DNA of 64,000 nt. Source: Phycisphaerales bacterium. GTDB taxonomy: Bacteria > Planctomycetota > Phycisphaerae > Phycisphaerales > UBA5793. The stretch spans positions 38,224-102,223 of the forward strand of contig JBICHN010000007.1 in assembly GCA_043101845.1 (NCBI GenBank), read 5' to 3'. Below the pieces are notes generated by a model. It was given only the letters and a program-made list of their open reading frames with translations. It was not told the origin of the DNA and made no database searches. A program made the translations under genes and the position numbers. Shown here piece after piece: positions 21,801 through 63,542 of the stretch (position 1 is the stretch's first letter; each line of letters opens with the position of its first letter).

Positions 21801-24800
21801 CCACTCGCCGCGCTCGATCACCTCCTGCATCCGGTCGCGTTCTTCCTCCTCTTCCTCTTCCGTCACAATGAGCGTTTCGATGCGGCGCCCGACCGCCTCT
21901 TCCTCGGTGAAGCCGAACAACGCTTCGGCGCCGCGTCCCCAGTAGGTCACGCGACCGTCGATGTCGGTGGCCACGACCGACTCCGTCAGATTCTCGAGCA
22001 ACTTCGCCTGGAACTCGAGACGCTGCGCCGCCTGTCGGCGCTCGATCGCGATCGCCGCCGTGCGGTTGAGGGCGTTGAGGATGCGCTGCTCGTCGACCGT
22101 CGGGCGGCGCGGCTGGGTGAAGTAGATCGCAAAGGTACCGAGCACTTCGCCGCCCGCCGTGCTGATCGGCGTGGACCAGCAGGCGCGGAGTCCGTGCCGA
22201 TCGGCGAGTTCACGGAACGGAGCCCAGCACGAGTCAGTCTGAATGTCTTCCGTGGTAAAGGCCCGGTTGAAGTGGGCCGCGCGTCCACAGGTGCCAACCT
22301 CCGGCCCCGTCGGTATGCCGTTGATCGCTTCGCGGTAGGCGGGATCCAGGCGCGGTCCGGCGCCGTCGAGCAGTCGCCGCGTTTCGGCGTCAAAGAGCAG
22401 AATCGACCCACGGACATCGTCGCCGCCCGCTTCGTCGATGATTTCGACGAGGCTCGCGAGCGTGCTCTCAATCGGATCTCCCGCGAGAATCCGTTCGAGG
22501 ATATCACGCTGCGCGTCGACGATGTGTTGCGCGAGCTTTCGCTCGGCGACCTCATGCTGCGATTCCTGGTAGAGCTGGGCGTTGTCGATCGCGAGGGCGC
22601 AGCGGCGGGCAATCTCTTCGATGAACGGCAGATCCGCGTCGCTCAGCGGCGATCGATTCACTTCGGTCACAAGCGTGAGCACGCCGAGCTTGCGTCCGTG
22701 CGCCACGAGGGGCGCGAAGATGGCGCTTTCAATACCGAGTTCGCGCACGATTCGATAGTGCTGATCGTCGTTTGTCGCGACGCGCAGGGTCGGCTCGTCA
22801 AAGTGCTCGATGACCTGAGGTCGGCCCGTGCGGAGCACCTCGTACACGCCCACCTCGGATGACGGATCGGGGGGATAGCGCTCGGTCAACTCTTCGGCGA
22901 ATCGGACCTTCTCCGGATCGGAATGCATGACGGTGGCGCGCCGCAGTGAGCCTTCCGCGGGGTCGAGAAGATCAACGACGCACCAGTCGGCGACGGCGGG
23001 CACGAGGGCGTCCGCGACGCGCCGCATGGTTTCCGTGTAGTCGAGCGAACCGCCGAGCGCCGCCCCTGATCGCGCCATCGCCTGGAGGGCGCGCTCGGCC
23101 CGCTTGCGGTCATGAATGTCGATCGCCCCACCGATGAACCCGGTGAATTCGTCGTCCGCATCGTGCATTGGCACGCCGCGGTTGAGCACCCACCGGTACT
23201 CGCCGCTCCGGTCGCGGATCCGATACTCGATCTCAAACGGTTCGCGGACCTCGAACGCGCGATCGAAGACGCCGTGCACGCTCGCCCGGTCGTCCGGATG
23301 CAGACCGCCCAGCCAGCCGGATCCGAGCTCGTCGTCGAGCGAGCGGCCGCGGAACTCGAGCCATTCGCGATTCACCCAGTTCAGGCTCTGATCCGGACTC
23401 GAGAGCCACACCATGACCGGAGCCGAGTTCGCCATCATGCGGAAGCGCTGTTCGCTCTCACGCAGCGCGTACTCCGCCTTCTTCCGGTCCGTGATGTCTT
23501 CATTGACGACGACGGCGCCGCGGACCGACCCGTCATCATCGCGAATCGGCACGGCGGAGTTCAGAATGATCTTGCGCGATCCGTCGAAGCATTCGATCTC
23601 GAGCGTCTCTTCGATCGTCGTTTCGCCGTGGTGGATGGCCCGGTATCCGGCCCACTCCTCGGCGGGCAACGGGTCGTCTTCGCCCGGACGCCACGCCTTG
23701 TAGACATGGAACTCGTCGGTCGGCACATACTCGGCGCCTTCCCAGATGCGCTCGCCCGCCGGGTTGCCGAGGATGATGCGGCCTTCTTCGTTGATGAGCC
23801 ATACGCCGACGGGAAGCGTCTGGAGCATGGCGCGCATCTGCTCTTCGCTCCGGCGCAAGGCTTCGATCGCGAGATTGCGCTCGGTCACATCGAGCAGCAT
23901 GTTGATCGCGCCAACCTGTCGACCATGCGCGTCGTAGAGCGGCTCAGGATTGGCGAGCACCTGGCGCCGCGTCCCGTCCGGTCGCTCGACGACGATCTCG
24001 GCGTCGCGGATCCGTCGACCCTCGCGGAGCGCGACGGCCATCGGGCAGGTGTCGAGCGGCATCGGCTCGCCGTTCGGGGAGTAGATCTTCCACGAGCCGC
24101 ACCAGAGATCCTTGCCGATCACCGGCTCCCGGCCCCAGAGCTTCACCGACGCTTCATTGAAGAGGGTGACGCGACCCTCCTGGTCGCAGGTGTAGATCGC
24201 CGCGGGGACGGCGCTCACGACCTCCCGGAAGCGTCGCTCGCTTTCGCGGATCGCCTCCTCCGCGAGTTTGCGCTCCGTGATGTCACGCACCTCGATGACC
24301 GTCGCCGCGTCGCCGGACTCGTCGATGACCGGCCGCGCCGAGCAGAGCACGGGGAACGCTTCGCCGTTCCTGCGGAAGAAGAGGTCCTCATGGTCGCGGA
24401 CTTCGAGGTGCTCCGGCAACGCCCGGTCGATCGGACACTCCTCGATCGGAAAAGCGCTTCCGTCCGGACGGGTATGGTGGATGTAGTTGTGCAGCGGTTG
24501 GTCGCTGATCTCGTCGAGCGTGTATCCGATCATCTCCTCCGCCGCCGGATTCATGAAGGTGCAGTAACCCTGCGCATCCATCATGAAGAGCGCCGCGGTC
24601 GCGTTCTCGGTAATCGCATGCCGGAGCTTCGCTTCGCGCACCGCTTCGCGTTCGGCGCGGAGCCGCGGACGCAGATCGCGAGCGACGGAGATGACATGTC
24701 GACGGCCCTCGATGGTCGTCGTGCTGATGCTGACCTCGACCGGTATGAGTTCGCCGGTCTTCGTTCGATGCACGCTGTCCCGCTGCATCTCTCCGCTCGC

Positions 24801-39446: not shown

Positions 39447-39477
39447 CGCCGAGCCTGAACGAATACCCTCTCCGTCT

Positions 39478-39531
39478 CTTCGTCTCTCCGTCTCTCCGTC
39501 TCTCCGTCTCTCCGTCTCTCCGTCTCTTCCG
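39478..39531. repeat. Tandem 8-mer minisatellite (ctctccgt)x~7
   Basis: Directly visible tandem repeat. Confidence 0.8.
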
Positions 39532-44067: not shown

Positions 44068-44300
44068 CCACCCAAAAAGAAAGAGAGGCGCGCCCACCGA
44101 CGCGCCTCCCCGAAATCTCAAATCTCAAATCTCAAATCTCAAATTTCAGATCTCAATTCTCCGACCTCCGACCTCAGATCTCAAATCAAACCCTCGGGTG
44201 GCACAGGCCTCCGCGCCTGTGCGAAGCTCGAGCTTCCTCATCCAAAAGGAAAGAGAGGCGCGCCAACCGACGCGCCTCCCTGAAACCTCAAATCTCAAAT
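44068..44300. repeat. Duplicated hairpin (gaggcgcgcc-caccg-acgcgcctc) plus tctcaaatc minisatellites
   Basis: Two near-identical ~60-bp units at 44068-44125 and 44245-44300. Confidence 0.6.
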
Positions 44301-44358: not shown

Positions 44359-45732
44359 TCACCCCTTCGCCGCCGCCGCCGCCGACTCCGCTGCGATCTC
44401 CTCGAGCTGCTCGCCCCAGGTCTTCTCGTTGTACCGGAACCGCGTCCGCAACATCTCGCCGTACTCGACGATCGCGTCCTTGTCCCACGCGATGAACACA
44501 TCGATATACAACCGACGGAACCGCTCCTTCGTGTTCCCGAGCTTGAGGAACAAATCGATGAACTTCCGGTTGAAGTAAAGCTCCGCGAAGGTGTGAATGT
44601 GCGAGAGGATCCCCTTGAACTCCTCGACATACCACTTCTCATACTGCATGAGGTACTCCTTCGAGAGGTCGCCCTTCTCGAGTCCCTCATGACAGAGATC
44701 CGCAAGCTTGATGCCGCACGACTGCACGATGTTCAACCCCGCCGAGAAGATCGGATCGACGAACCCGCTCGCGTCGCCGAGCAGCACCCATCCATCCCCG
44801 ACCTGCTCCGTCGCGTAGTAGTGGTACCCCTCGTACTCCGGCCCCTCCGCGTTCTTGCGCGGCGCCGGCTTGAGGCTCGTCACCCGCTTCGCGTTCTCGA
44901 GCGCATCCGCCACCTCCGGACGCATCAACACATACTTCTCGTAGAACTTGTCCGCCCCGAGCTCGACATACTCATCCCAGTGCTCGTCGCGGCTCGACAC
45001 GAGACCGACTGACACGCGGTTACCCTTGAGCGGCGCCCACCAGATCCATCGATTCTCATCGAAGTAGATGTAGAAATTCCCCTCGTCGATCCCGCTCTCG
45101 CGCTTCGCGCCTTCCCAGTGCGCAAAGGTCGCGAAGCTCTTGAGCCGCGACATCTCCTGCCGCAGCCCGAGCTTCCGACCGAGGTAGTTCGCCCGCCCGC
45201 TCGCGTCGACCACGAGATGGCAGTTCACCTCGTGCGTCTCGCCGTGCCGCGTAAAGCGCACGCCGTTCATGCGCCCGTTCTCGTCATAGAGCACATCATC
45301 GACCCGCGCCTCTTCGAGCGCCGTCGCGCCCTTCTCCCGCGCCCAGTTGAGGAGGAACTCGTCGTACACCGCCCGGTCGAGCGTGTACACGAACGCCTGG
45401 CACGCCTCCTCATCGGGGAACACATCCTGCTCGAAATTGAACCGCGCCCCGCTCGACGCGACGAACTGTCCGCCCCATTTCTGGATGAACATGTCGTCGA
45501 GCATTTCGCGCGTGAGTCCGAGCCGCGCCCAATTCCGCCAGATCGCGGTCGGCGCGATGATCTCGCCCACGACGAACCGCGGGAACTTCGCGTACTCGAG
45601 CACGAGCACCGAGCGCCCATGCTCGGCGGCGATCGTCGCGAACGACGCGCCCGCCGGCCCGCCCCCGATGACGACGAAGTCGTAGAAATCCTTGAGTTCC
45701 GTTCCGTTCGGCTTCCTGGCGATCATGGGCAC
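44359..45732 (-). CDS. FAD-dependent oxidoreductase, flavin-dependent halogenase-like
   Basis: GGGPAG FAD motif; WIWWAP (WxWxIP-like) and FVDPIFSAG (FxxPxxSxG) motifs characteristic of tryptophan-halogenase-family enzymes. Confidence 0.65.
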   Translation of the reverse strand: MPMIARKPNGTELKDFYDFVVIGGGPAGASFATIAAEHGRSVLVLEYAKFPRFVVGEIIAPTAIWRNWARLGLTREMLDDMFIQKWGGQFVASSGARFNFEQDVFPDEEACQAFVYTLDRAVYDEFLLNWAREKGATALEEARVDDVLYDENGRMNGVRFTRHGETHEVNCHLVVDASGRANYLGRKLGLRQEMSRLKSFATFAHWEGAKRESGIDEGNFYIYFDENRWIWWAPLKGNRVSVGLVSSRDEHWDEYVELGADKFYEKYVLMRPEVADALENAKRVTSLKPAPRKNAEGPEYEGYHYYATEQVGDGWVLLGDASGFVDPIFSAGLNIVQSCGIKLADLCHEGLEKGDLSKEYLMQYEKWYVEEFKGILSHIHTFAELYFNRKFIDLFLKLGNTKERFRRLYIDVFIAWDKDAIVEYGEMLRTRFRYNEKTWGEQLEEIAAESAAAAAKG

Positions 45733-46223
45733 AGATCCTTCGGCGAGAGTTCATAACGCGTCGTCGTCTGAGGAGGCAGAGCGACAAAGACCCATCCGTC
45801 CGACCGGCGCCCGCTTGAAACGAGGCGTCGGCGTGACTTGAACGGCTGATCTGGTTGTGCGCGAGAGTGATCTTCCTCCCCGCGCGCAAAGACCGCGGCC
45901 CCACGCGGTCATGCCACCAACCTCCACCTCCGACGAACTATTGCACACTTCCCCACAACAACGAGTCTGACCATCCATACTAGGGATTCGAACCGACGAG
46001 ACGACCACCACGGAAATCCCCGGCGCGAACGAACCCCAACCATCCCATGAACCCCTCGCCCGCCCGCCGAGATGCGGCTCGCGCGCGAAATGTGCCATGC
46101 GAGAGACGCATGAGCGATCGACCCGATCGCGATCCCGATTGAGCCGAACCCGCCACACGCCGCCCATCCGCCCGATAGCCCGCCCCCCAGCCCGAACCCC
46201 TCCACACGCCGGAAATCACGCCG

Positions 46224-46470
46224 GAGATGGTAAAAGCTCGGCGTTCTCCGGATTCGACGCTCGAATCACACCGTCGCGTCCATACTCGCACCCATCGATC
46301 GAACGATCGCGCCCCTCCTCCACGCCGGAGATAAGCCCGGCGTTCTCCGGATTCGACGCTCGAATCACACCGTCGCGTCCACACTCGCACCCATCGATCG
46401 AACGATCGCGCCCCTCCTCCACACCGGAGAGAGTAAAAGCTCGGCGTTCTCCGGATTCGACCCTCCGAGC
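46224..46470. repeat. Tandem ~110-bp repeat (2.4 copies), each unit containing the ccggaga-N-ttctccggattcgacgc hairpin
   Basis: Direct sequence comparison of 46224-46333, 46334-46423 and the partial unit 46424-46470. Confidence 0.75.
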
Positions 46471-46667
46471 CTGTGCGAAGCGCGCTCACACCGTCGGCGT
46501 AACGCGCGCCGGCCTCAACCGCACTCTCTTCCGTTCTCCAACTAATCGCGCCCGGGGTTTTCTCGGTCGTGCAACCCGGACATTGCCACACAATCACCTT
46601 TCGATAAACTATCTCACGACTGCGGAGGGCGCACTCAATCTCATCGATTCCTGTCGCCGGAATTCAC

Positions 46668-48404
46668 GTGCGAAAACGACTCGTCATTCTTGGCTGTTCT
46701 GCGACGAAGAAGCCCACACCGGGACCTCTTCCCGCGGTTGATCGCTATGACGGTCCGATGTATCGGGTACTGCGGTCCTTTCTTCGAAAACACCGCTGGC
46801 CCTCGGATCTCTCAGTGGCGGTCTTGTCTGCAGAACACGGACTCATCGGCGGATTGACGCCGATCGAGCCCTACGACCGTCGAATGTCGGGAGACCGGGC
46901 CGCGGAGATTGCGCCGAAAGTCGCGAAGACACTCGAAGCTTGGAAGCCTCTGCATTCGCGCGTCGACCTGGTGCTTGGTCAGTCATATCTGCCTGCAATT
47001 GAGGCGACCGCAAGACAGTGTTGGCCAAGTACCACCTCGGTCGCAGGGGGTGGGATCGGCATGAAGCTCTCGTACCTGCGGAAAGAACTCCATCAGAAGG
47101 CTCAACCTGCCCATGCTCCGGATCCCGACGACTCCCCGCGAAAGCGGGGGCGTCCCGCCTACTTTCTCCCGGACTGGGATGACTTCGTAGACGCTGATTT
47201 CGACTTCGTGAGAGACCGATTCTCATCAAACGACCGTGTCTCCCGTCAGGAACTTCACTGCTCCCAACTTGTCGATTGCCTCGCCGATGGAATCCTCGTC
47301 AGCCTCGCACAGAGCACTACAGGGAAGGGGTTGCTGCGTTCACTGGAGGCGTCATCACCCGATTCCCTCGCGCCGACATCGGTGAAGAAACACTTTGGGC
47401 TGAATTCGAGGCAGTGGGCCTTCGGCGACTGCGGCGCATTCAGCTATGTCAACGAACACGAGCCGACGATAAGTATCGAGCAAGCCGTCACAATTTACGA
47501 GTTGTTCGGATTCGACCTCGGTGCCAGCATCGACCACATCCCGGTTCCAATTGTCATTCGCGAAGGAAAGCGCAGAAGACTGACCAGGGCGGAGCGTAAG
47601 GCACGCTTGGCGTTGACCGTTCGGAACGCGGATGCATTTATTTCTGAGTGGCGATACCGCGAATGCCGTTTTCATCCTGTCGGTGTCATTCAGGGCATCA
47701 CGTCGGAGGACTACGCGAACTCCGTCTTCGCCTACAGCGAAATGGGGTATCGCCGGCTCGCGTTGGGTGGTCTTGTCCCGCGTTCGGATCGCGAGATTGT
47801 GGAGATCGTCACGGCCGTCACTGATGCGTTCAAGCAGCTCCGCGAGCGCCCATGGCTGCACCTCATGGGCGTGTATAGACCCGAGATTCAGTCACAACTT
47901 CGCGCCATGAAGGTCGATAGCTTCGACAGCGCCACCTACTTCCGCAAAGCATGGCTCCGCTCCGGCCAGAACTACCTCGGCGCCAACGGCCAGTGGTACG
48001 CCGCCATCCGCGTCCCACCCTCGCGCGACCCTCGCACCGCCAAACGCCTCAAGGCCTCTGGCAAGTCAGAGAAGAAGATTCGCCAACTCGAACTCGCAGC
48101 CCTCCGCGCACTTCGTGGTTACGCCAGCGGCCGAGTCAAACGCGTCGACACCTGCCTCAAACACGTCATGGCCTATGACAGCTTGCTCGACCGAGCTGAA
48201 GCCGAGCAGGTCTCATTCGCCGACAGCTACCGCCGCACGCTTGAAGATCGACCGTGGGAGAAGTGCAAGTGTGACATCTGCAGGTCAATCGGCATTGATG
48301 CGCTGATCTTCCGCGGCCTGAACCGAAACAAGCGGCGGGGCGCGCACAATACGTTGAAACTCTACGAGAATCTCGGTTCGAGCCGTGGGACTCGACAACG
48401 ATGA
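46668..48404 (+). CDS. TGT-fold (DpdA-like transglycosylase) protein with a ~190-aa N-terminal domain of unknown function
   Basis: C-terminal Zn subdomain CxCxxC-x25-H (KCKCDICRS…RGAHN), exactly as in tRNA-guanine transglycosylases; a TIM-barrel-like middle region; lower-GC codon usage than the host. Confidence 0.55.
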   Translation: MRKRLVILGCSATKKPTPGPLPAVDRYDGPMYRVLRSFLRKHRWPSDLSVAVLSAEHGLIGGLTPIEPYDRRMSGDRAAEIAPKVAKTLEAWKPLHSRVDLVLGQSYLPAIEATARQCWPSTTSVAGGGIGMKLSYLRKELHQKAQPAHAPDPDDSPRKRGRPAYFLPDWDDFVDADFDFVRDRFSSNDRVSRQELHCSQLVDCLADGILVSLAQSTTGKGLLRSLEASSPDSLAPTSVKKHFGLNSRQWAFGDCGAFSYVNEHEPTISIEQAVTIYELFGFDLGASIDHIPVPIVIREGKRRRLTRAERKARLALTVRNADAFISEWRYRECRFHPVGVIQGITSEDYANSVFAYSEMGYRRLALGGLVPRSDREIVEIVTAVTDAFKQLRERPWLHLMGVYRPEIQSQLRAMKVDSFDSATYFRKAWLRSGQNYLGANGQWYAAIRVPPSRDPRTAKRLKASGKSEKKIRQLELAALRALRGYASGRVKRVDTCLKHVMAYDSLLDRAEAEQVSFADSYRRTLEDRPWEKCKCDICRSIGIDALIFRGLNRNKRRGAHNTLKLYENLGSSRGTRQR

Positions 48405-50779
48405 CACGCTTTCCTCCTTTGAAAGACGCAGACGAGTTCACCGCCAGCCTTGCTTCGGCGGTAGTACGATTCCAAGAGCATGGATTGGACGAACCCCAAG
48501 CCGCCGCCACGTTCGCGCCGCCGTCTGAGCCACTTCACGTCGTTGCGGGTCCCGGTAGCGGCAAGACCACTGTGCTGGTCCTTCGAATCCTCTACCTCGT
48601 CTTTGTTCACGGGTATCGCCCCGCTGAGATCATCGCCACGACGTTTACACGCAAAGCGGCCTCCGAAATGCGCTCGCGTGTCCTGGGATGGGGATACGTG
48701 CTGCGCAATCACCTCATTGAGGCGTCTGACTCCGAAGAAGTCCGGGGGTGGTTGCGCACCCACTGCGAATTCAGCGATATTCGCCTAGGCACCTTCGATA
48801 GCCTCGTTCAGGAGTTCATTGCGGAGCACGGCCCGCGAGAAGAAGACCCACCTGTGGTCATTGAACCGATCACTGCAACCTCGATCATGCTCCTCGACGG
48901 GTTGATCTCGAATAATGGCCTCCATAACAGCGCGACACTCCGGCAGCACCTTACGGACATTGGGTACTGGCCCATCAATGCACCGCGCCTCGCCGGATAC
49001 TTGCGGCAACTTTCAGATCGACTCGCCAACGATCTTGTTGACAAAGACGCCCTCGCAGCATCGTCGCCTGCGATGCAGAGGGCGTGCGCTGCAATCGATG
49101 CGTTTCGAGAGTCTCTTGCACGGCGACAGTTGATCGACTATAGCGGCCTGTCAGAGCGGTTCCTTACTTTGGTGATAGACGGTGCGCTCGATGATGGCTT
49201 GCAGCAATACCGAGTGATGGTGGTTGACGAATTCCAAGACACGAACTGCCTTCAGGAAGCGTGCTATTTTGAGATGTACTCACGATTCTTAGGTGATGAT
49301 CAGTGTCCAGCATCACTCACAGTTGTCGGTGACGACGACCAATCTATCTTTCGTTTCCGCGGCGCAACCGTCGAAATCTTTACCGACTTCCCGAATCGAA
49401 TCGCTACGCACACAGGCGGGCCTGTGTGCGATACGACGTTTCTTAGCAGCAACTTCCGGTCGCGCCCTGGCATACTGTCGCACTTCGACAGGCTTGTCGA
49501 TCAGCCGGACTTTGCGGACGCTAGAGTAGCCGATAAACCGAGTCTCGTTGCACGGACCCACGGTGGAGCACCAACCCTACAAGGTTTGCCCGTACTCGGC
49601 ATGTTCGACGACAATCGGGGCACGCTCGCAAATCGGTTGCGCGACATGCTCATAGCCGTTTTTCGCGGAGATGGGTTCCGCGTCCAGTGTGTTGATGCAG
49701 AATTTGTGATTCAAGGAACTGAAGATCACGACTTTGCGGATGCCGTTTTGCTGGGTTCCTCTATGGTGGAGAGAAAACCTGAACGCAAAGATCCGCTCAA
49801 TCTCACTGGCCACCTGCGCGCAGCGCTCGAACCTGATGTTCCGGTATTCAATCCTCGCGGTCGCGCTCTGCACGACGTTCTGGACGTCCAGCGGTTGCTC
49901 GGCTTGTTCCTTCAATGCACCGATCCAAATCGCGCGATCCAGACGAGCATCCCGTGGCTTCAAGCGCAATTCGGCGACACGATGGATGGGTGGAGACAAC
50001 GAGCACAGGATCTTGCGGCTTCAAACCCGGCACCGGGAAACCTAGCGCAGTTCCTGAACGACTGGAGTACTAGGACGTGGAGAAATCGCCGCCGAACCCT
50101 GAGGGATTGGCCGGCGATTGAACTGTTGTTTACGCTGACAACTTGGCTGCCGCGGTTCGTTGAGGATCCTGAGTACCAAGTGTACTTAGAGGCGATTGCG
50201 CGGGCCGTTGAACAATCCACACCGCTGTCCGCATTCGGCGGCAGGATCGTTTTCGACGACAGATTCGATGGTCCTTCCGTCAAACATTTGCTAATCAACG
50301 TGCTAGCTCCGATTGCGGGTGGAGAGATCGACGTTGATGAGGAATTGATACCACACGTTCCTAGACATTGGTTCCCCATGATGACGATTCACCAAGCGAA
50401 AGGGCTTGAGTTCCCCTTGGTGATCGTCGACGTCGGTAGCGGAAATGGACACGAGATTCGCGACTTCATGCGGTTCCCGACAAGGCCGTCGGCGGTCCAT
50501 CATGACGAGGACATCGTGGCGCCGCATTCAGCTCTCGGAAACCTGCGTCAGGCGCGGGATTCGATCACTCGGGCGCGTGATGACCTTAAGCGAAAGTACT
50601 TCGTCGCCATGAGCCGCGCCCAATCCGTATTGATCCTCGTAGGACACACGAGGTTCATTGACGGGAACCCACTACCTTCCATTCAAGTGGGTAGCCGATA
50701 CGACGAAACGCGCATATGGCGCTATATACCAGCCGCACAATGCTCGACGGTCGACACAGATACTGTCGCACTGATTTGA
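48401..50779 (+). CDS. UvrD/PcrA-like superfamily-1 DNA helicase
   Basis: Walker A AGPGSGKTT, motif II VVDEFQDTN and motif VI TIHQAKGLEF; its start overlaps the upstream stop (ATGA). Confidence 0.8.
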   Translation: MTRFPPLKDADEFTASLASAVVRFQEHGLDEPQAAATFAPPSEPLHVVAGPGSGKTTVLVLRILYLVFVHGYRPAEIIATTFTRKAASEMRSRVLGWGYVLRNHLIEASDSEEVRGWLRTHCEFSDIRLGTFDSLVQEFIAEHGPREEDPPVVIEPITATSIMLLDGLISNNGLHNSATLRQHLTDIGYWPINAPRLAGYLRQLSDRLANDLVDKDALAASSPAMQRACAAIDAFRESLARRQLIDYSGLSERFLTLVIDGALDDGLQQYRVMVVDEFQDTNCLQEACYFEMYSRFLGDDQCPASLTVVGDDDQSIFRFRGATVEIFTDFPNRIATHTGGPVCDTTFLSSNFRSRPGILSHFDRLVDQPDFADARVADKPSLVARTHGGAPTLQGLPVLGMFDDNRGTLANRLRDMLIAVFRGDGFRVQCVDAEFVIQGTEDHDFADAVLLGSSMVERKPERKDPLNLTGHLRAALEPDVPVFNPRGRALHDVLDVQRLLGLFLQCTDPNRAIQTSIPWLQAQFGDTMDGWRQRAQDLAASNPAPGNLAQFLNDWSTRTWRNRRRTLRDWPAIELLFTLTTWLPRFVEDPEYQVYLEAIARAVEQSTPLSAFGGRIVFDDRFDGPSVKHLLINVLAPIAGGEIDVDEELIPHVPRHWFPMMTIHQAKGLEFPLVIVDVGSGNGHEIRDFMRFPTRPSAVHHDEDIVAPHSALGNLRQARDSITRARDDLKRKYFVAMSRAQSVLILVGHTRFIDGNPLPSIQVGSRYDETRIWRYIPAAQCSTVDTDTVALI

Positions 50780-50789
50780 GGCCTACGCG

Positions 50790-51998
50790 ATGACCATTGC
50801 GCGAAGAGAACGGGCGTATGAGATTCCACCCTATTCACTAACCGGGGATGTTCTGTCGTTTCGGCGGTGTGGTCTCCAATACCGTTACTACAACCGAAGC
50901 AAGCTGCCCCCATCGCGGCCAGTCCAGATGTGGACGGGCGAGTTCCTGCACGGAGTGATGGAGGACGCGTATCGACAGTGGCCAGACAACCCACATTTCC
51001 CTTGGCCGTTTGTCGAAGCTATCGATGGCCTACCGAGGCTTGACGAGCCAGCACCTGATGAATGGCCCCGAAACCACGTGGGTAGGATGGGACTGCGTAT
51101 GGAGAAGCATCTGGCAGCTGCAGGGCGCAGTTCCCGCAACGCGCAAGCACGATTCAATGCGTATCGAAGAGCAGCAGAGGCGATCAATGTTCTGGGTCCC
51201 GACCTCTTTCCGCTAATCACGACTGCGGAAGAGCCAATTTCGGGCACCCGTCCGATTGTGTTGCCTGCCAACTCACCGCGAAATGCAGACAGATATGAAC
51301 TGAATGGCATCGTGGATGTGATTTCGAGTGTCCGACTTCAGGAACATCAGGACAATGATCTCGTTGCGATGCTGGCCGAACACCTTCCCGACGAGGATGA
51401 GGTGTTCGACGTTATTGTCGACTACAAAGGCATGCGCAGACCCTCTCGCGGCGTCCAGAATGATCCAATCTGGGATGATCACGCTTGGCAGATCCAAACG
51501 TATGCCTGGCTTCGTAGCAAGAGGGAAGATCGGGCGCGCGTCGGGTGTGGTCTCATCATCTACCTGAACGAACTCTACCCGTCGCGTCAGGACATGAAAG
51601 CGTTGCGCGCCGATCGAGAAAACGGGACATCCGACGTGCTCCCTCCGAGGGGGTCCGCCGACGACTACGCCATTTTGGGAGTCGCAGCAAATGCGGATGA
51701 AGATGGGGACGAGCCAACCGATGCAGCCTTGTCACTTGCATTCCGTCTCGAACGGGCGGTGCGCGTCATCGGCGTTGACGAACAGAGCCAGCAGAACGCC
51801 GTGGATCGGATTCACGCGGTTGTCGAGGACATTGAAGAACGCGTAAGTCGCGAGCACGCCGATGGAGAGATTCGCAACAACTGGCCCGCGAACGGACGCC
51901 ACCGGGACTGTGTCGCGTGCGACTTCAATGACACATGCCCGCAGCCCGCATGGGTCCGCGATGGACTAGCCAGAACGCCACCGCGAGCACCCGGCTAA
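50790..51998 (+). CDS. PD-(D/E)xK nuclease, Cas4/RecB-family-like, with a 4Fe-4S Cys cluster
   Basis: D…DYK core (IVDVIS…VIVDYKG); N-terminal Cys plus C-terminal CxxCx5C (CVACDFNDTC) as in Cas4/AddB nucleases; 10-bp gap to the helicase gene. Confidence 0.6.
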   Translation: MTIARRERAYEIPPYSLTGDVLSFRRCGLQYRYYNRSKLPPSRPVQMWTGEFLHGVMEDAYRQWPDNPHFPWPFVEAIDGLPRLDEPAPDEWPRNHVGRMGLRMEKHLAAAGRSSRNAQARFNAYRRAAEAINVLGPDLFPLITTAEEPISGTRPIVLPANSPRNADRYELNGIVDVISSVRLQEHQDNDLVAMLAEHLPDEDEVFDVIVDYKGMRRPSRGVQNDPIWDDHAWQIQTYAWLRSKREDRARVGCGLIIYLNELYPSRQDMKALRADRENGTSDVLPPRGSADDYAILGVAANADEDGDEPTDAALSLAFRLERAVRVIGVDEQSQQNAVDRIHAVVEDIEERVSREHADGEIRNNWPANGRHRDCVACDFNDTCPQPAWVRDGLARTPPRAPG

Positions 51999-52004
51999 TC
52001 GAAT

Positions 52005-52373
52005 CTAGCCGGAGTAAACACACCCCGCGGTCTCCGTCTCGCGAACCTCAATCCGCGATAACCCCGGCACCACTCCATCGAGTTGCCCCCAAATCCACCG
52101 CGCGAGATTCTCAACGGTGGTCACGCCAATCTCCTCGATGTCGTTGAGATTCTGGTGATCCAGACGCTTGATCACCGGCTCAACCGCGCGCTTGAGATCA
52201 GCAAAGTCAATGATCCAGCCCGTCTCCGGGTCGACCTCACCCGACACATACACGATAAGCCGATACGAATGCCCATGGACATTCCGGCACTTGTGTCCCT
52301 CTGGCAGATGCGGCAACGAATGCGCCGCCTCAAACTTGAACTCCTTGTAGATCTCCAACGAAACGGCTCCCAA
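52005..52373 (-). CDS. queD: 6-carboxy-5,6,7,8-tetrahydropterin synthase
   Basis: 122 aa, near-colinear with E. coli QueD, including the CxxxHGH motif (CRNVHGHSY) and the C-terminal TAGCVY. Confidence 0.9.
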   Translation of the reverse strand: MGAVSLEIYKEFKFEAAHSLPHLPEGHKCRNVHGHSYRLIVYVSGEVDPETGWIIDFADLKRAVEPVIKRLDHQNLNDIEEIGVTTVENLARWIWGQLDGVVPGLSRIEVRETETAGCVYSG

Positions 52374-52679
52374 TCGAGGTCATCAGCTCAGACGCGAGGT
52401 CGCCATCATCGTGGCTCCCGGCGCTGCGTCAAGTCGACGCGCTGCCCGCCATGACCGCTCATCTGCGTAGCCGCGCACGGCGTTCCCCACTCGCTCATCA
52501 TTTCGGGGCCTCCACCTCATTCGTCCGAAAAAATCGCGCTCCGCTCGCCGCCCCGCCCGTCCGGCCGGCAGGTTAAGCAGTGTGATGACCCGTCACGGCG
52601 TCGACACGCCACTGGAGATCTGCCCGCCGATCAAAAGAAGCCAGGCCACCGCCATCGCATCCGCCGGGGTCCGAGGAGT

Positions 52680-53447
52680 TTGATCATGCCGACGAAACGC
52701 CCGCGCCAGATTCCGCCACACGACGACGATGACCACACCGACCGTGGACGAATCCACGCCGCGTCCACCACGGCGCCGAAGACTCCCGCGACAACCACCG
52801 CCGCCACCGCCGCCTCCGCCGCGGCCCTCACCGTCGAACAGATCTGCGCCCGGGCCTTCGCGGCCGACCATAACAACGATAACGACGACGAACGAATCGA
52901 CGCCCGCGTCCGCTTCTTGCTCATCCTCCTGAGCGACCAGTGCGAACACGCCTGGCTCGAGGTCCTCCGTCAGGTCCAGCCCTTCACCCGTTCGCTCGCC
53001 CGGCGCCTCGACCCGCACAACGCGGCCGACCTCGCGCTCGAACTCGGTCAGGAAATCGTTGCCGCGTTCCGCGAACGGATCTTCAACTTCGAGTCGCAGA
53101 AGAACCTGCGCGACCGGCTCGCCGACATCGCGATCAATGTCTACCGCAAGCGCCTCCGCGCCGAGCGCCGCTGGCGCGCCGTCGTCGCGCAGCTCATCGA
53201 CGATTACCGGCGCGGTCGCTCGGTCTCGCTCGCGGATCGGCTCATCGCCCGGACGCTGCTCGAACGCCTCCGCCGCGCGGTCGAATCGCTCGAGCCGACC
53301 GACCAGGCGATCGTCACGATGCGCATCGCCGATGACATGACCTTCGTCGACATCGCCGCGTGTCTCGGCCATGCGCTGAGCCCCGATGCGGTCGCCGATC
53401 ACTACCGCGCCGCGTTGCGCGACCTTCGAGACTGGTTCGAGACCTGA
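52680..53447 (+). CDS. ECF-type RNA polymerase sigma factor (with low-complexity N-terminal extension)
   Basis: Region-2-like (…QEIVAAFRERIFNF…) and region-4 HTH-like (…AIVTMRIADDMTFVDIAACLG…) segments. Confidence 0.5.
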   Translation: MIMPTKRPRQIPPHDDDDHTDRGRIHAASTTAPKTPATTTAATAASAAALTVEQICARAFAADHNNDNDDERIDARVRFLLILLSDQCEHAWLEVLRQVQPFTRSLARRLDPHNAADLALELGQEIVAAFRERIFNFESQKNLRDRLADIAINVYRKRLRAERRWRAVVAQLIDDYRRGRSVSLADRLIARTLLERLRRAVESLEPTDQAIVTMRIADDMTFVDIAACLGHALSPDAVADHYRAALRDLRDWFET

Positions 53448-55745: not shown

Positions 55746-55789
55746 GATCGACGAACGAACCCCGCGAGACTGGCCCCCACCAACCGACC

Positions 55790-55845
55790 CTCCACGCCGG
55801 AGATAAGGCCCGGCGTTCTCCGGATTCGACGCCCGACCCACCCGA
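55790..55845. repeat. Hairpin repeat-family unit (ccggagataaggcccggcgttctccggattcgacgcccga)
   Basis: Matches units at 606-660 and inside the 46224-46470 tandem array. Confidence 0.6.
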
Positions 55846-56133: not shown

Positions 56134-56572
56134 CCTCACGCTCGCCGCGGGGCACGACGCTTTGCGGCGACGGGTATCTTGTCGCCTGTGAGAGGCGATG
56201 GGATCTGCTCTTTGAAAAGTGAACAGTTGGGAATACGACGCCGCGAGGATGTGCCGTAACTCCGAGTCTTTCACAAGGTTCGGCGGTTGCGGGATCCCAT
56301 GGCGCGAGAATCACAGCTCGCGTCGGGAAGCATCCTTGTGACGCCCCAATTCTTTGAATGAGGAATTGTGAGGTGACGGATGATTCCGGAACTGTCCCGT
56401 CGATCTTAGCCGACGACGGGGCCCGGTGGCGCCTGCGGACATGTGTGCGTGCATACATGGGAGTGGGTGTCACGGGAAGACCGGCCCGATCGGACTAAGC
56501 CCCGGTCGGGTGACCAGGTCGACCTTCATCTGACGCATTCCGGCTTCTTCGGAAGTCGGAGCGATGATAATC

Positions 56573-58091
<1,519 letters not shown>

Positions 58092-58830
58092 GATACCTTA
58101 GACGCGGTCCGAGAGCGATCTCAACCGCGATACAAGTCAACGCAGCCTCGTCCGCTAAGACCCTCACCGGTCCGGCGGAAACGCACGCGGCGACGCGTGC
58201 GGATGGCGCCGAATTCCCCAACTGTTCGCAATATAACCAGCAACCCCGGCTGACTTAGCTCAGTCGGGGTTGTTGTGTTTAAGGCGGAAGGCACGGGGGC
58301 ACGGGGGCACGGAGGCACGGAGGGAAGAGACGGAGAGACGGGGAGGCGGAGAGACGAAGTGTGCGGGAGGGACGGAGGCACGAAGGCACGGGGGCACGAC
58401 GGGAAGAGACGGGGAGACGAAGAGACGGGGGCGCGGGGAGGGGCAGAGGAATATCTCAGATCTGAGATTTGAGATCTGAGATTCTTATGCGGCCGAGTCA
58501 GGGGCATCGACACTGTGCGGCTTTGAGAACTCGCCGCGCAAAGACACGCCTGAGCTCCGACAAATCTCAAGGGATACCGCGTGATTTCGAGTCGCATCAA
58601 ATACATACCAGCAGACCTTCGCTCGCCGGCGCCAGCGCCCGACATGACAAACGAGGCCCCCGCGTGATTCCGCTATGACTTTCTGGTAAGGTGTGCCGCG
58701 TGGGCGCATGGCGATCGTCGCCGCGCGAAACGAGAAGCACGGCGGCGTCGCGCCTTCGGTCCGTCACATTCAACCGTTCCATCCGGTCACACTTCGGCGC
58801 CTCGTTCCGGCGCCGCGCGGAGACTGCTCC

Positions 58831-59913
58831 ATGTTCGAAGATCGCGAAACGCTCTGGGTCGTTCATATCGGAAGGCAGGACGGCCTGCCGACGCGGGCCC
58901 GCGACGAAGGCTTCGTCGCCATCGGATGGCCGCGGCTTGGCGATCTTCGTCAATACAAGACGCGCGACGCCATGCGCGAGGCGATGAAGCGGGCATGGCC
59001 GAACTGGTCCGAGCATCGGGTCCGCGCCTGCTACGGCCAGGTCTTTCGCTTCGCGCACAAGATGCAGGTTGGCGACCCCGTCGTGTTTCCCATCAAGGCG
59101 ACCCGTGAGATCGCGATCGGGCGAATCTCGAGCGACTACCGGTACCACCCCAACTACCACGAGACCGACGGCGAAGACTATCCGAACTTCCGCGATGTCG
59201 AATGGCTCAAGATCGTGCCGCGCACCGCGTTTTCGAAGTCCGCGCTGCACAGCTTCGGCGCCTTCCTCTCCGTGAGCACTTCCGACGATCATCTCGAAGA
59301 GGTCATCGCCGTGCTGAACGGCCAGGACTCCTCCTCTCCTGCCGATCGCACGCCCACGATCGGGGGCGGAGTCGTCAAACGGACGCCATCCGTCTTGCCC
59401 CGGGACGACGATGAGGACGCCGACGATCCCACCGACCCCGGCATGAGCCTGCTCGAATCAGCGCAACAGGAAACTGAAGATTACCTGCTCAAGCGATGGT
59501 CGCGCACCGGCGCCGAGTTCGAGCATGTCGTCGCCGCGGTGCTCGAGGCGATCGGATACACCGCGACCGTGACGAGCGCGAGCGGCGATCACGGCGTCGA
59601 TGTCATCGCCCATCCCGACCCGCTCGGCCTCGAGCCGCCCTTCGTGAAGGTCCAGGTCAAGAGCGGGACCGGCTCGGTCGGCGAGCCGGCGGTGAGCCAG
59701 CTCCTCGGATCGCTGTCGGAGGGGGAGAAGGGGATCTGCGTCGCGCTCGGCGGCTTCACGACGCACGCGCTCTCGAAGGCCCGGAACTCATCGCGTGTGA
59801 GCCTCATCGACGCGAAACAGTTCGTCGCGCTCTTCCTCGAACACTACGAACAGATGAACCCGCTCTGGCGGGCGCGGTTCCCACTCAGCCGCGTGTATGT
59901 GCCGAGCGCGTGA
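58831..59913 (+). CDS. Mrr-family type IV restriction endonuclease (Mrr_N winged helix + Mrr_cat)
   Basis: C-terminal PD-(D/E)xK Mrr_cat (…FEHVVAAVLEAIGY…GDHGVDVIA…VQVKSG…); the start could be further upstream (58693). Confidence 0.65.
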   Translation: MFEDRETLWVVHIGRQDGLPTRARDEGFVAIGWPRLGDLRQYKTRDAMREAMKRAWPNWSEHRVRACYGQVFRFAHKMQVGDPVVFPIKATREIAIGRISSDYRYHPNYHETDGEDYPNFRDVEWLKIVPRTAFSKSALHSFGAFLSVSTSDDHLEEVIAVLNGQDSSSPADRTPTIGGGVVKRTPSVLPRDDDEDADDPTDPGMSLLESAQQETEDYLLKRWSRTGAEFEHVVAAVLEAIGYTATVTSASGDHGVDVIAHPDPLGLEPPFVKVQVKSGTGSVGEPAVSQLLGSLSEGEKGICVALGGFTTHALSKARNSSRVSLIDAKQFVALFLEHYEQMNPLWRARFPLSRVYVPSA

Positions 59914-60860: not shown

Positions 60861-62858
60861 TCACCCCACGCCCGCCTCCGCGAGGATTTCGCGTTCGACA
60901 TACCGTCGGAAGTCGCGGGCGCGGGTGAAGCAGCGGTAGCCGATCTGGTTCGCGAACGCGATCGTCTCCGCCGGCTCGTTGAGCAGCACCGCGACCGGCT
61001 CGCTCAACTCTTCGCGCAATCCCGCCGGCCAGACGAGGTCGAACACGGCGCGCTGCTCGCCGGTCTCCACGTCGGCGTACTCGTACCCCATCTCGCCCTC
61101 GGTCAGGCCCTGCTCGACGACCCAGGCGTTGATCGCTTCGAGTTCGCGCTCCTCGTCTTCGCTCGAGATGCCGCCGAGCACGACCACCTCGGGCGCACGC
61201 CCCGCCGTCGACGCTTCGTCATCATCGGCCGCCGCGGTCACCGGCGCCGTCGCGTCGGCGTCCATCCAGTGCGTCTCGCCGTGCAGCAGTTCCGCGAGCT
61301 GCCGGTTCGCCTGCGCTGCGAGCAGTTCCCGCCGCGCTTCGAGGAAGTCGAGGTACCGGTCCAGCTTCCAGAGCGCCGGGTCCTGCGGGATCCACTGCGA
61401 CGCGAGCGCCCCCGGATGCGCCTTCTCCACCTCGCGGAAATACTCCTCGGGGAATCGATGGCTGATGTCGAGGTTCGTCTCTTTCGTGAGGAAGCAGAAG
61501 TTCGCGATCGCGTTGACCTCGGCGCGCCGATGCCCCGCCGCGTAGAGGCGCGCCTTCGGAAAGATGTGGTGCACTTCGAGGCGGCTCATCTTGCCGAGCA
61601 GACTCGCCTTGAGCGGCAGACCCGTGCCCCAGTCGCGCGCCTCGCCCATCCGCGTGAGCATGTAGAGCACCGGATAGAAGCGCGCGCCGAGGCTCGCCCC
61701 GCTGAAGTGACCCGGGCGCACGCGCAACTGGCCGTGCCAGAGACGCAACTGTTCGAGCAGTTTGTCGACGCCGCCGTCGGGTCCTTCGAGCGCTGCGAGA
61801 TCCTGGTCGATGTACGACTCGGTCGATCCGGAGAAGCGCCCCCACATGCCCGCCTGGGCGAACCAGAAGAGGAGCTTGTCGCGTTCGCGATCACTCAACT
61901 GCTTCGGCCGCTCGTCGAGGTAGCGCACCATGACCGGCACGGCGAAGCGGCCGAAGAAGACGCGATTGTGATCGAGGCCGAGTCGGCCCGCGATGAGGTT
62001 GAGGCAGTAGTCGATGTGCTTCGTCGCGCGCTCGAGCGCCTCGCGCACCTCTTCAGCGTCACGATCGTGCAGATGCTGAAACTTCGCCTCGCCGGTAAGA
62101 ACGGTGTTCACCGACCGGAGCAGCCAGTCGAGGTTGAAGCGGTACCCGGCCTTCTTCCATTCCTTGAGCTTCACCTTCATCGTGTCGCGCGCCTCGGGCC
62201 AGTCGGCGCAGATCTTCGCGAGCGCGAGGTCGCCCTTTGAAAGCTTCGTGCCGCCGCTGTTCACGCGGTTGAAGATGTCGACGACGATATCGATCGACTT
62301 GTCGGCGCCCGTGACCTCCTCGACATGGAGGTCGATGTCGACAATCCCGATGAGCCTCGAGATGCGCCCGACATACTCACCCACGCGCGGCGCCAGTTCC
62401 GGGTTCGCGCTCAGCCGCCCGACGAGCGGGCCGATGCCCTCGTTCCCGGCCTTCATGAGTTCGGTGACATCGATCCAGAGCGGATCATCCTTCATCTTGA
62501 CCGGCTGGAAGAACTCGAAGACCTCGTTCTCGAGATGGAACATGAGTCCGGTGAAGGCCTTCGCCTTGCCGTCGAAGAACTTCGGCGGCCGGCCGCGCAC
62601 GACGCCGTACAGCGAGGTCATGCGCTGCTGTCCGTCGAGGAGGAGCTTCACGACGCCGGGCGCGAGTTGCCCGTCGCCGCGATGCGTCGCGGACTTCGAC
62701 TCGGTCGCCCAGACGAGCAGCCCGCCGACGGGGTGGCGGCGGTAGAGGGAATCGAACAGGCCGCGGACCTGGTCGCGGCCCCAGACATAGCCGCGCTGGA
62801 ATTCGGGCAGGGCCATGTGTCCGGAATCGATGTGGTCGAGGACGGTGGAGATTTTCAT
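60861..62858 (-). CDS. GmrSD-like type IV restriction endonuclease (DUF262 + DUF1524)
   Basis: N-terminal DUF262 motifs (LPEFQRGYVW, DGQQR) and C-terminal DUF1524 HNH-like motif (EVHHIFPKA); start at MKISTVLDH (CAT at 62856-62858). Confidence 0.8.
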   Translation of the reverse strand: MKISTVLDHIDSGHMALPEFQRGYVWGRDQVRGLFDSLYRRHPVGGLLVWATESKSATHRGDGQLAPGVVKLLLDGQQRMTSLYGVVRGRPPKFFDGKAKAFTGLMFHLENEVFEFFQPVKMKDDPLWIDVTELMKAGNEGIGPLVGRLSANPELAPRVGEYVGRISRLIGIVDIDLHVEEVTGADKSIDIVVDIFNRVNSGGTKLSKGDLALAKICADWPEARDTMKVKLKEWKKAGYRFNLDWLLRSVNTVLTGEAKFQHLHDRDAEEVREALERATKHIDYCLNLIAGRLGLDHNRVFFGRFAVPVMVRYLDERPKQLSDRERDKLLFWFAQAGMWGRFSGSTESYIDQDLAALEGPDGGVDKLLEQLRLWHGQLRVRPGHFSGASLGARFYPVLYMLTRMGEARDWGTGLPLKASLLGKMSRLEVHHIFPKARLYAAGHRRAEVNAIANFCFLTKETNLDISHRFPEEYFREVEKAHPGALASQWIPQDPALWKLDRYLDFLEARRELLAAQANRQLAELLHGETHWMDADATAPVTAAADDDEASTAGRAPEVVVLGGISSEDEERELEAINAWVVEQGLTEGEMGYEYADVETGEQRAVFDLVWPAGLREELSEPVAVLLNEPAETIAFANQIGYRCFTRARDFRRYVEREILAEAGVG

Positions 62859-63542
62859 GGGGGTGGGGGTTCCTCGAGTTCGGGGACTGGGTCGGCGTGT
62901 GTCGGGTCTGTGGTCCTCTTGTGATCGTCGCGGCGACCGCTCCGAGGCGGGCGCCGCCACGCGACGCGACGCGACGCATTGTGTCACAAGGTAGCAGAAA
63001 TTGGGGGTGGGGGAAGGGGGATACCAGTCGACCTCGAGCTTGACACGTCAGCCAAGACTCTCGCATCGACAGTCTCCAACTGACGGAAGGGCGGGACGCC
63101 TGATTCGAGCAGTTCGTCAACTGTGATATCGCGCCAGCCTTGCGCACGCACGATTCCAAATCGTCCGGAAGTGGCACTGGGACGACGCCAGCGAGCGATC
63201 TTCATGCGACGCAGTTCACATAGACCTTCCCAATACTCGATCCATCGCTCTTCGAACTTCGCTCCGACCTGCCAGCCTCGCGGTCGGCGGCATCTTCCGT
63301 CGAAGATCGATCCATCCTTTGCGTACGGGACGCTTATCAACATGACATCGCTATTTGCCACAGTTTCTCCTTTCAAAGGGGATTAAGGCGACAGAATGGG
63401 CGATGCTGGTGCATCGCCCATGCGTTTCAGGTACTCAAATGCATGTGATGACTGATTGAGAGAGGCAGCAGTTGTCGTCGCCGCCGTCTTTGGATTGTGC
63501 GTCGAATCTACCCTCCGTGGGATGTTCTGGCTTCGGCAAATG

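Follow-up and report, generated by a model that had tools for sequence, protein, structure and literature searches.

Can three genes and a linked precursor gene make up a complete system that marks a bacterium's DNA with 7-deazaguanine bases and destroys DNA without the mark? The question is raised by a low-GC block in a 64,000-nucleotide (nt) stretch of DNA from a Phycisphaerales bacterium (contig JBICHN010000007.1, positions 38,224 to 102,223), which we call the window. An original prediction, made from the letters alone, had read the block as a candidate novel DNA modification-defense system: a protein with the fold of transfer RNA (tRNA)-guanine transglycosylases (TGTs), a UvrD-like superfamily 1 (SF1) helicase, and a Cas4/RecB-like nuclease, next to queD, a gene for synthesis of the deazaguanine precursor preQ0. 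We analyzed the block computationally and favor, with moderate confidence, the reading that it is a compact Dpd-like 7-deazaguanine restriction-modification system, a widespread minimal version of its kind. The features of the block, with the two domains of gene 1, are as follows.

46668-48404, forward strand: gene 1, 578 amino acids (aa), GTG start; DpdC-like/DpdA fusion, predicted modification enzyme
46683-47081, forward strand: N-terminal DUF6884/YaaA-fold domain of gene 1 (residues ~6 to 138)
47151-48377, forward strand: DpdA catalytic triosephosphate isomerase (TIM)-barrel domain of gene 1 (residues 162 to 570)
48401-50779, forward strand: gene 2, 792 aa; SF1A helicase of the UvrD/PcrA/Rep type, predicted restriction motor
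50790-51998, forward strand: gene 3, 402 aa; RecB-family PD-(D/E)xK nuclease with a four-cysteine iron-sulfur (Fe-S) signature, predicted restriction nuclease
52005-52373, reverse strand: queD, 6-carboxytetrahydropterin synthase, convergent to gene 3

Gene 1 is confirmed by sequence and structure comparisons as a member of the DpdA family of DNA-guanine transglycosylases, and is not a tRNA TGT; its activity on DNA is predicted from this assignment. Residues 165 to 569 score 341.9 bits against the NCBIfam DpdA model NF041059 (cutoff, 200), the PADLOC DpdA model matches at 5e-98, and the DpdA crystal structure 7UI4 in the PDB is matched with an E value of 2.3e-64. In contrast, the archaeosine TGT structure 1IQ8 is matched only at 1e-3, and the models for enzymes acting on tRNA remain far below their cutoffs, with 33.5 bits for archaeosine TgtA (TIGR00432; cutoff, 350) and 24.3 bits for tRNA-TGT (TIGR00449; cutoff, 47.6). 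Gene 1 therefore falls outside the canonical tRNA Tgt and archaeosine TGT families, as the original prediction had supposed. A Pfam scan of gene 1 gave DUF6884 plus TGT and no PUA-domain family. The NCBI product name for an identical protein, from a Phycisphaerales metagenome-assembled genome, is "tRNA-guanine transglycosylase DpdA."

The catalytic residues are also those of a DpdA. Residue roles were taken from work on the enzyme of Salmonella enterica serovar Montevideo (Gedara et al. 2023, PMC10164549), the numbering of which is offset by 20 in the PDB chain. Its Asp95, Phe99, Asp130, Gly206/207, Asp256, and Phe265 map to D254, F258, D289, G367/G368, D420, and W429 of gene 1, and its zinc ligands Cys368/370/373/His395 map to C533/C535/C538/H560; among 15 diverse members of the gene 1 family, the mapped catalytic and zinc residues are invariant. 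The zinc motif had been predicted and is present, but its spacing is C533-x-C535-x2-C538-x21-H560 and not x25 before the histidine. The position of His181 is occupied by a glutamine (Q342) that is invariant in the gene 1 family. Glutamine is also found at this position in bacterial tRNA TGT.

Ahead of the DpdA domain, gene 1 has a second domain that the original prediction did not contain. Residues 6 to 138 match Pfam DUF6884 above threshold; the AlphaFold model of residues 1 to 162 has a predicted local distance difference test (pLDDT) score of 94, and the fold of the domain is that of YaaA/DUF328. DpdC has been placed in DUF328 by Hutinet et al. (PMC5699537), and the GATOR-GC study assigns it to DUF6884. 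Weak matches to DUF6884 and YaaA are shown by the protein just upstream of dpdA in an Enterobacter plasmid cluster of the canonical kind, and alignment of the gene 1 domain with the proteins upstream of dpdA or dpdB-dpdA in canonical clusters reveals common motifs (C-S/T-x2-K, PA-x-D-x-Y-x-G, and SA-x2-GL) as well as conserved tyrosines. In the fusion, the order of the domains agrees with the canonical operon order, dpdC-dpdA-dpdB (PMC12707154). That the domain is DpdC-like by homology is well supported; its role is less certain, and we predict a hydratase converting 2'-deoxy-preQ0 (dPreQ0) to dADG (the 2'-deoxynucleoside of 7-amido-7-deazaguanine), a DNA-binding module, or both. As a DpdC-like/DpdA fusion, gene 1 would hold two of the three canonical modification functions in one polypeptide. 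In PHROGs, we found only an unnamed family for the N-terminal domain, plus a generic helicase family. The PADLOC candidate PDC-M57A is matched by stand-alone DUF6884 proteins of ~140 aa (H20-H32, among them gp8 of Burkholderia phage KS14 and gp64 of Streptomyces phage Ponzi).

Genes 2 and 3 encode a helicase and a nuclease, as had been proposed. Gene 2 matches PF00580 (UvrD helicase) at 4.3e-44, and a PDB profile search with it found UvrD at 8e-45 and AddA at 7e-39. Its motifs Q, I, II, III, V, and VI are intact and invariant among 34 homologues (Q33; AGPGSGKT, residues 49 to 56; DExQD, 276 to 280; GDDDQ..RFRG, 310 to 321; T662/H664/Q665/K667/G668/L669/E670, consensus TIHQAKGLE; and Y733/V735/S738/R739). 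Gene 3 matches PF12705 (PDDEXK_1) at 4e-10, and the residues invariant among 39 to 50 homologues (C27, C374-x2-C377-x5-C383, D176, D211-Y-K213, and Q234...Y238) correspond to the signature of RecB/Cas4/AddB nucleases with a predicted Fe-S cluster. A profile search with gene 3 against PDB sequences found nothing, and it is the predicted structure alone that places gene 3 near AddB and Cas4: for its AlphaFold2 model (pLDDT, 83), the top Foldseek match is AddB (4CEJ_B, 2e-6) and the second is the Argonaute-associated Cas4 protein ACE1. Together, the UvrD and AddA profile matches and the AddB fold agree with the AddAB-like helicase-nuclease module of the original prediction. The public annotation of gene 3 (P0123) is 299 aa long and lacks the N-terminal ~100 residues; because these residues are conserved, including the first Fe-S cysteine, C27, we take the 402-aa form to be the real one. 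Among homologous pairs there are two subtypes, with a long (~390 to 400 aa) or a short (~300 aa) nuclease. PADLOC gave no system-level match for genes 1 to 3 except DpdA, its GajB, RTasHel, and weak Cas4 matches being generic.

The genes are found together elsewhere. A scan of one genome per species gave 67 loci with gene 1 homologues (labeled L plus a number), 66 of them with a gene 1 open reading frame (ORF). By tblastn and ORF clustering, gene 1, helicase, and nuclease follow each other in that order on one strand at 54 of the 66 loci, in more than 12 phyla, and at L021, L039, and L055 the helicase-nuclease pair is present in another arrangement. The phyla with gene 1 include Planctomycetota, Acidobacteriota, Chloroflexota, Latescibacterota, Actinomycetota, Bacillota, Pseudomonadota, Nitrospirota, and Armatimonadota; clustered at 90% identity, gene 1 forms at least 1252 and gene 3 at least 1242 clusters over many phyla. 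The nuclease belongs to a discrete family of small size: 303 representatives (E ≤ 1e-3) in a set of 1.84 billion proteins. Cultured organisms with the island's architecture include Planctomycetales bacterium 10988 (CP043547), Pelotomaculum terephthalicicum JT, Ammonifex thiophilus SR, and Desulfothermobacter acidiphilus 3408-1.

The linkage is reciprocal. Starting from the nuclease, a scan of metagenomes yielded 80 loci, and the helicase lies upstream of the nuclease at all 70 that have enough upstream sequence. DpdA is present in 36 of the 37 loci with at least 4.3 kb upstream, and the 37th ends at a DpdB-like gene; 30 of the 36 have the fused form without DpdB, and 6 have DpdA plus a DpdB-like gene (3 canonical type, 3 Planktothrix type). 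In the loci surveyed, the helicase-nuclease pair was never seen without DpdA, whereas gene 1 does occur without it: L015 has gene 1 alone, L041 has it next to genes for a recombinase, an integrase, and a relaxase, and in L062 and L063 its only partner is a HerA-like pair. This asymmetry is that of classical restriction-modification systems, in which orphan modification enzymes are tolerated and orphan restriction modules are not.

Two further sets of genes recur in these loci. At 10 genome loci, gene 1 is followed by a HerA-like ATPase (PF01935, 608 aa) and a 650-aa protein without a family match. These lie between gene 1 and the helicase in L022, L025, L033, L035, L040, and L044; in L002 and L004, the flanks of which are incomplete, they are present and helicase-nuclease genes were not seen. 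The two proteins may be an alternative or additional effector module. A 317-aa protein with no Pfam or PADLOC match stands beside the module at 10 genome and 6 metagenome loci (for example, L010:8967-9920, L024:15253-16308, and L043:15327-16289) and is not in the window.

The link to preQ0, suggested originally by queD, also recurs. The queD product scores 106.6 bits against the QueD model TIGR03367 (cutoff, 89.25) and matches PF01242 at 1e-38. A convergent queD directly after the nuclease is found also in L003, L014, L020, L026, and L155, and in L064 queD lies ~0.9 kb further downstream of the nuclease. Counting all preQ0 genes beside homologous modules, QueD was found at 10 genome and 14 metagenome loci, QueC at 11 and 11, and the YhhQ family (PF02592/Vut_1, annotated as queuosine salvage in L071) at 8 and 8. 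FolE, QueE, and QueC are not in the window, and thus the remaining steps of preQ0 synthesis must be encoded elsewhere.

The block is real and well delimited. Genes 1 and 2 are coupled by an ATGA start/stop overlap at 48401-48404, genes 2 and 3 are 10 nt apart (50780-50789), and the stop codons of gene 3 and queD are 6 nt apart; the first two features had been read correctly from the sequence. The reported drop in GC content is real (57.8% versus 65.6% in the rest of the window), but the flanks are not at ~69%, their local values ranging from 60 to 74%. Third-position usage deviates, as had also been noted, with GC content at third codon positions (GC3) of 0.68, 0.61, and 0.61 in genes 1 to 3 and 0.72 in queD versus 0.81 to 0.89 in neighboring host genes. 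The queD gene had been taken for a convergent preQ0 gene at which the block ends. It is convergent and it is a preQ0 gene, but it belongs to the block, because L155 has the same convergent queD (89% aa identity) and the similarity runs to ~52362. Sequence similarity to relatives is limited to ~46638-52362, and the flanks are without synteny. Thus, the locus is neither conserved in place among relatives nor host-like in composition, and the best reading of the block at ~46.64 to 52.37 kb is a horizontally acquired, mobile island.

Within such islands the parts have been exchanged. In the closest relative, L155, gene 1 is 81% and queD 89% identical to those of the island, but the helicase is only 27% identical and the nuclease is short and divergent; in L156, the helicase (72%) and nuclease (78%) are close and gene 1 is only 54% identical. 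The histories of the modification module and the helicase-nuclease module differ, and the two recombine independently. L155 is flanked by genes for a serine recombinase, a SocA/Panacea-domain protein, and a PycTM-domain protein, and L156 lies near TIR-domain and caspase-helicase genes. Only 1 of 2.9 million viral contigs has a fused gene 1, and that one has the whole trio; among 72,556 plasmid records and the phage collection there was no full-length fused gene 1, only unfused DpdA or stand-alone DUF6884. The fused gene 1 is not a phage gene.

Relative to known Dpd systems, DpdB is missing. A tblastn search with DpdB proteins from L069, L070, L073, and L074 (six queries, E < 1e-4; two re-run on the window at E < 1e-2) found none in the window or within ~10 kb around gene 1 in the 67 genome loci. 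With queries from L069, there was also no match in the window to DpdD, DpdK, DpdJ, the DpdI-position protein, or a partial DpdH (tblastn, E < 1e-2; DpdE, DpdF, and DpdG were not searched), and a canonical DpdC homologue was not found in the window.

Elsewhere the same pair does occur with DpdB. On plasmid pB41S5 of Bradyrhizobium sp. 41S5, the genes DpdB-DpdA-DpdB-QueE-QueD-QueC adjoin a helicase and a nuclease that are 39% and 43% identical to those of the island. In Sorangium sp. So ce145, QueC/E/D, FolE2, a DpdC-position protein, and DpdB-DpdA-DpdB adjoin the pair, and in Planktothrix serta PCC 8927 the helicase-nuclease pair is accompanied by a 700-aa DUF6884-TGT protein and a DndB-like gene. 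Since the pair also accompanies clusters with DpdB, it is a DpdA-dedicated module and not merely a DpdB substitute, and for the same reason we rejected replacement of DpdB as the sole role of the helicase. The "three genes" are one architecture within a broader helicase-nuclease type of Dpd system. Further unusual dpdA clusters are found in L071 (Paenibacillus sp. 37 plasmid pART37) and L072 (a plasmid of Nostoc sp. NIES-3756), which have a DpdA of 689 to 714 aa with extra N-terminal parts, a second TGT-like gene, no annotated DpdB, and P-loop NTPase or DEAD/DEAH helicases. It seems that Dpd-type systems vary far more widely than the canonical dpdA-K layout would suggest.

Among known systems, the island is closest to the Dpd system of S. 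Montevideo. They have in common a DpdA of one family, alike in its catalytic Asp residues and in the CxCx2Cx21H zinc site, a DpdC-like part ahead of DpdA, linkage to queD and preQ0 synthesis, a modification module together with a presumed restriction module, and a mobile island as their setting. The differences are that the island lacks DpdB (a ParB/DndB-like ATPase, essential in vitro in Salmonella); that it has a single SF1 helicase of the UvrD type and a single Fe-S nuclease of the RecB type in place of the canonical SNF2/DEAD/YprA-type helicases and phospholipase D (PLD)-type nuclease; that its DpdC-like part is cut to the N-terminal core and fused to DpdA; that Gln replaces DpdA His181; and that it consists of 3 or 4 genes versus 11 or more.

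The helicase-nuclease pair recalls several other systems. Like AddAB and AdnAB, it combines a UvrD-like SF1A helicase with a RecB-family nuclease having a 1+3 cysteine Fe-S arrangement. Unlike AddA, gene 2 has no fused nuclease (no PD-(D/E)xK match), and it scores 97 and 94 bits with addA models that have cutoffs of 708 and 861; gene 3, at 402 aa, lacks the inactivated-helicase body of AddB (1132 to 1156 aa; target-normalized TM-scores, 0.16 to 0.17, as expected if the match covers a portion of AddB only), and the pair is tied to DpdA rather than to recombination genes and forms a discrete, small family. With Cas4 and ACE1, gene 3 shares the four-cysteine Fe-S cluster and the D...D/ExK...QxxxY nuclease core, but it scores only 16.9 bits with TIGR00372 (cutoff, 65) and has extra N-terminal and inserted segments (~400 versus ~200 to 270 aa). 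There was no CRISPR-like array in the window, no Cas family match among the ~27 window proteins scanned, and no recognizable cas or Argonaute gene near the island. Gabija, too, pairs a UvrD-like helicase with a nuclease in a defense-island setting, and GajB is the best PADLOC match for gene 2. However, the GajB match is to generic SF1 sequence and falls on two separate parts of long models, and UvrD, AddA, PcrA, Rep, AdnB, and RecB all outrank the GajB structures in the PDB profile search; moreover, the nuclease here is of the RecB/Cas4 type, and Gabija has no modification gene. The Gabija nuclease, GajA, is of the OLD/TOPRIM type. The pair would thus work like AddAB/Cas4 nucleases and helicase-nuclease defense pairs, yet it is a member of none of these families.

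The DpdA proteins of phages (9g, CAjan, and iggy) are alike in working without DpdB and in being linked to preQ0 genes (PMC6884629, PMC10484667). They are described as anti-restriction tools that modify a large fraction of the G in phage genomes, whereas gene 1 falls in the bacterial DpdA equivalog, is tied to a helicase-nuclease pair, and is nearly absent from viral contigs. As had been supposed, the arrangement of a DpdA protein, a UvrD helicase, and an Fe-S nuclease appears to be undescribed in the searchable literature, although some key Dpd papers may mention it. In the latest dpd-island survey, the presence of both dpdA and dpdB was a requirement; for Myxococcota, Cyanobacteriota, and other groups it describes islands "lacking the restriction operon" and names no alternative module.

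How might the island work as a compact restriction-modification system? QueD would raise the flux into the preQ0 pathway, and the DpdA domain would then insert preQ0 in exchange for particular guanines of the host's duplex DNA. From homology to the S. Montevideo enzyme, D420 would be the nucleophile that forms a covalent Asp-DNA intermediate and D254 the general acid/base. The fused DpdC-like domain may hydrate the nitrile to give dADG; the invariant Cys10 of its C-S-x2-K motif is a speculative candidate nucleophile, proposed by analogy with QueF, a nitrile-activating enzyme. In the absence of DpdB, either the DpdA of gene 1 needs none or the helicase would supply ATP-driven opening of the DNA. 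Finally, helicase and Fe-S nuclease would jointly degrade unmarked phage or plasmid DNA and spare the marked DNA of the host.

The helicase may be involved in both halves. Gedara et al. (PMC10164549) considered that the ATP requirement of DpdA possibly reflects helicase-like opening of DNA, and therefore a UvrD-type helicase may also assist modification. We think it unlikely, if worth stating, that the helicase has a full double role, as the opener that replaces DpdB and as an AddAB-like motor for which sparse dADG is a Chi-like "self" signal that attenuates degradation. If that were true, restriction would operate by counting marks along the translocation track, not by site recognition or a sequence-specific cut, and the Chi-like reading would explain how a genome is protected by modification at only ~0.01% of G.

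Several points weigh against a compact restriction-modification system. Homologues of QueC, QueE, FolE2, and YhhQ were not found in the window. The N-terminal domain of gene 1 is about the first half of canonical DpdC, without the C-terminal half, and its match to the PADLOC DpdC model is marginal (E, 0.045). Plasmid and phage records also contain DUF6884 proteins that stand alone, and the function of DUF6884 may be broader than dPreQ0 hydration. A processive helicase-nuclease would have to sense a sparse base modification, and helicase-nuclease pairs work in repair as well. Lastly, the S. Montevideo DpdA requires DpdB and ATP in vitro (PMC10164549); DpdB is absent here, so activity of the gene 1 DpdA on DNA is an extrapolation.

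The alternative that fares best, although we consider it decidedly unlikely, is that the island only modifies DNA. Helicase and nuclease would then be accessories of base exchange, for example, opening the duplex in place of DpdB or clearing stalled DpdA-DNA intermediates and abasic sites, and the mark would serve other ends, such as epigenetic control or shielding against other nucleases. Neither the window nor any of the fused loci has DpdB, which such an opener would fit, as would the helicase-like opening that Gedara et al. suggest behind the ATP requirement; the strict linkage of the pair to DpdA suits an obligatory cofactor equally well. However, the pair also accompanies clusters with two DpdBs (L070, L073, L131, and L142), and gene 1 does without the pair in L015, L041, L062, and L063. 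DpdA, DpdB, and DpdC modify DNA in vitro without a nuclease, and base exchange needs no intact RecB-type nuclease. The shuffling of modules seen in L155 and L156 also suits a cassette-like effector better than a tightly coevolved cofactor.

More doubtful still is a selfish addiction or anti-restriction cassette, in which the mark shields the DNA of the element or host against other restriction systems, helicase and nuclease kill cells that lose the island, and phage defense is incidental. The foreign composition, the lack of synteny, and the recombinase, integrase, and relaxase genes beside relatives all fit a selfish element, and phage DpdAs are known as anti-restriction tools (PMC6884629). 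This idea is compatible with a restriction-modification system, since classical systems of that kind behave alike; on the other side stand the single viral contig in 2.9 million and the lack of any full-length fused homologue in the 72,556 plasmid records.

We regard it as improbable that the island senses modified DNA in the manner of type IV restriction, the DpdA domain recognizing or excising phage 7-deazaguanines and recruiting the helicase-nuclease. Transglycosylation is reversible in principle, many phages carry 7-deazaguanines, and type IV restriction-like genes lie near the island in the window. However, the recurrent linkage to QueD, QueC, and YhhQ points to consumption of preQ0 and thus to insertion, a DpdC-like domain makes sense only after insertion, and canonical DpdA/B/C clusters with the same pair belong to the type that has been shown in S. 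Montevideo to write the mark. That a housekeeping tRNA-guanine transglycosylase merely stands beside an AddAB-like recombinational repair pair, as the NCBI product name and UvrD- and AddB-like folds typical of repair could suggest, is hardly credible in view of the tRNA-TGT scores far under cutoff, the reciprocal linkage across phyla, the foreign composition, the small, discrete nuclease family, and the lack of an AddB body in gene 3 and an AddA nuclease domain in gene 2.

If the island is a compact Dpd-like system, it matters in several ways. The canonical system, with 11 or more genes, is hard to dissect; a natural three-gene version with a bifunctional writer, a helicase, and a nuclease would be a more tractable model of how the mark is read and unmodified DNA destroyed. 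The island is also a test case for a bacterial DpdA working without DpdB. Current approaches would miss the family, which is widespread in environmental phyla, as the latest survey needs dpdA plus dpdB and the PADLOC 2023 models name DpdA only; bacteria may therefore modify their DNA with 7-deazaguanines considerably more often than has been catalogued.

The surroundings of the island include three features of note.

56572-58085, forward strand: complete 16S ribosomal RNA (rRNA) gene (Rfam, 1503 bits)
58693-59913, forward strand: Mrr_cat restriction endonuclease-like gene (7e-24)
60861-62987, reverse strand: GmrSD_N (DUF262) gene (1.6e-24)

The Mrr- and GmrSD-like genes, 6 to 10 kb from the island, look like those of modification-dependent (type IV) restriction enzymes; with the island included, the neighborhood is defense-rich. 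Such enzymes would need to tolerate the host's own deazaguanine mark. No 23S rRNA gene was found in the 6 kb after the 16S gene, the Mrr-like nuclease gene coming next, so 16S appears to be unlinked from 23S, as is known in Planctomycetota. A 71-nt repeat (2.3 copies, 58290-58449) lies just downstream of 16S.

An ORF of 205 aa at 45980-46597 on the reverse strand was rejected as a gene: its GC content by codon position (0.64/0.69/0.61) is noncoding-like, it spans a tandem repeat, and it has no Pfam or NCBIfam match. If, as is probable, no gene lies here, ~0.9 kb of noncoding DNA (45733-46667) is found at the island's left edge. A search for island-end repeats in 45600-53000 gave just two-copy imperfect matches of 14 to 19 nt (79 to 93% identity), which look like chance. 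An Rfam scan of the window found the 16S rRNA alone and no preQ1 riboswitch or other regulatory RNA; there is no tRNA gene in the window, and a promoter and terminator scan gave counts not above those in shuffled sequence.

An element of ~45 nt (CCACGCCGGAGAT..AAGGCCCGGCGTTCTCCGGATTCGACGC) with an internal CCGGAGA/TCTCCGG inverted repeat has five copies in the window, all on the forward strand, versus 0.08 expected. Three copies lie in a 99-bp tandem array at 46217-46465, upstream of gene 1, and the others are at ~55789-55835 and ~608-655; the element may be a dispersed host repeat of the repetitive extragenic palindromic (REP)-like or small-RNA-like kind. A 2526-aa ORF at 18858-26438 on the reverse strand has host-like codon usage. 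There are also intergenic microsatellite-like arrays, with 7.5 copies of CTCTCCGT at 39468-39527 and 10.7 copies of AAATCTC at 44113-44187.

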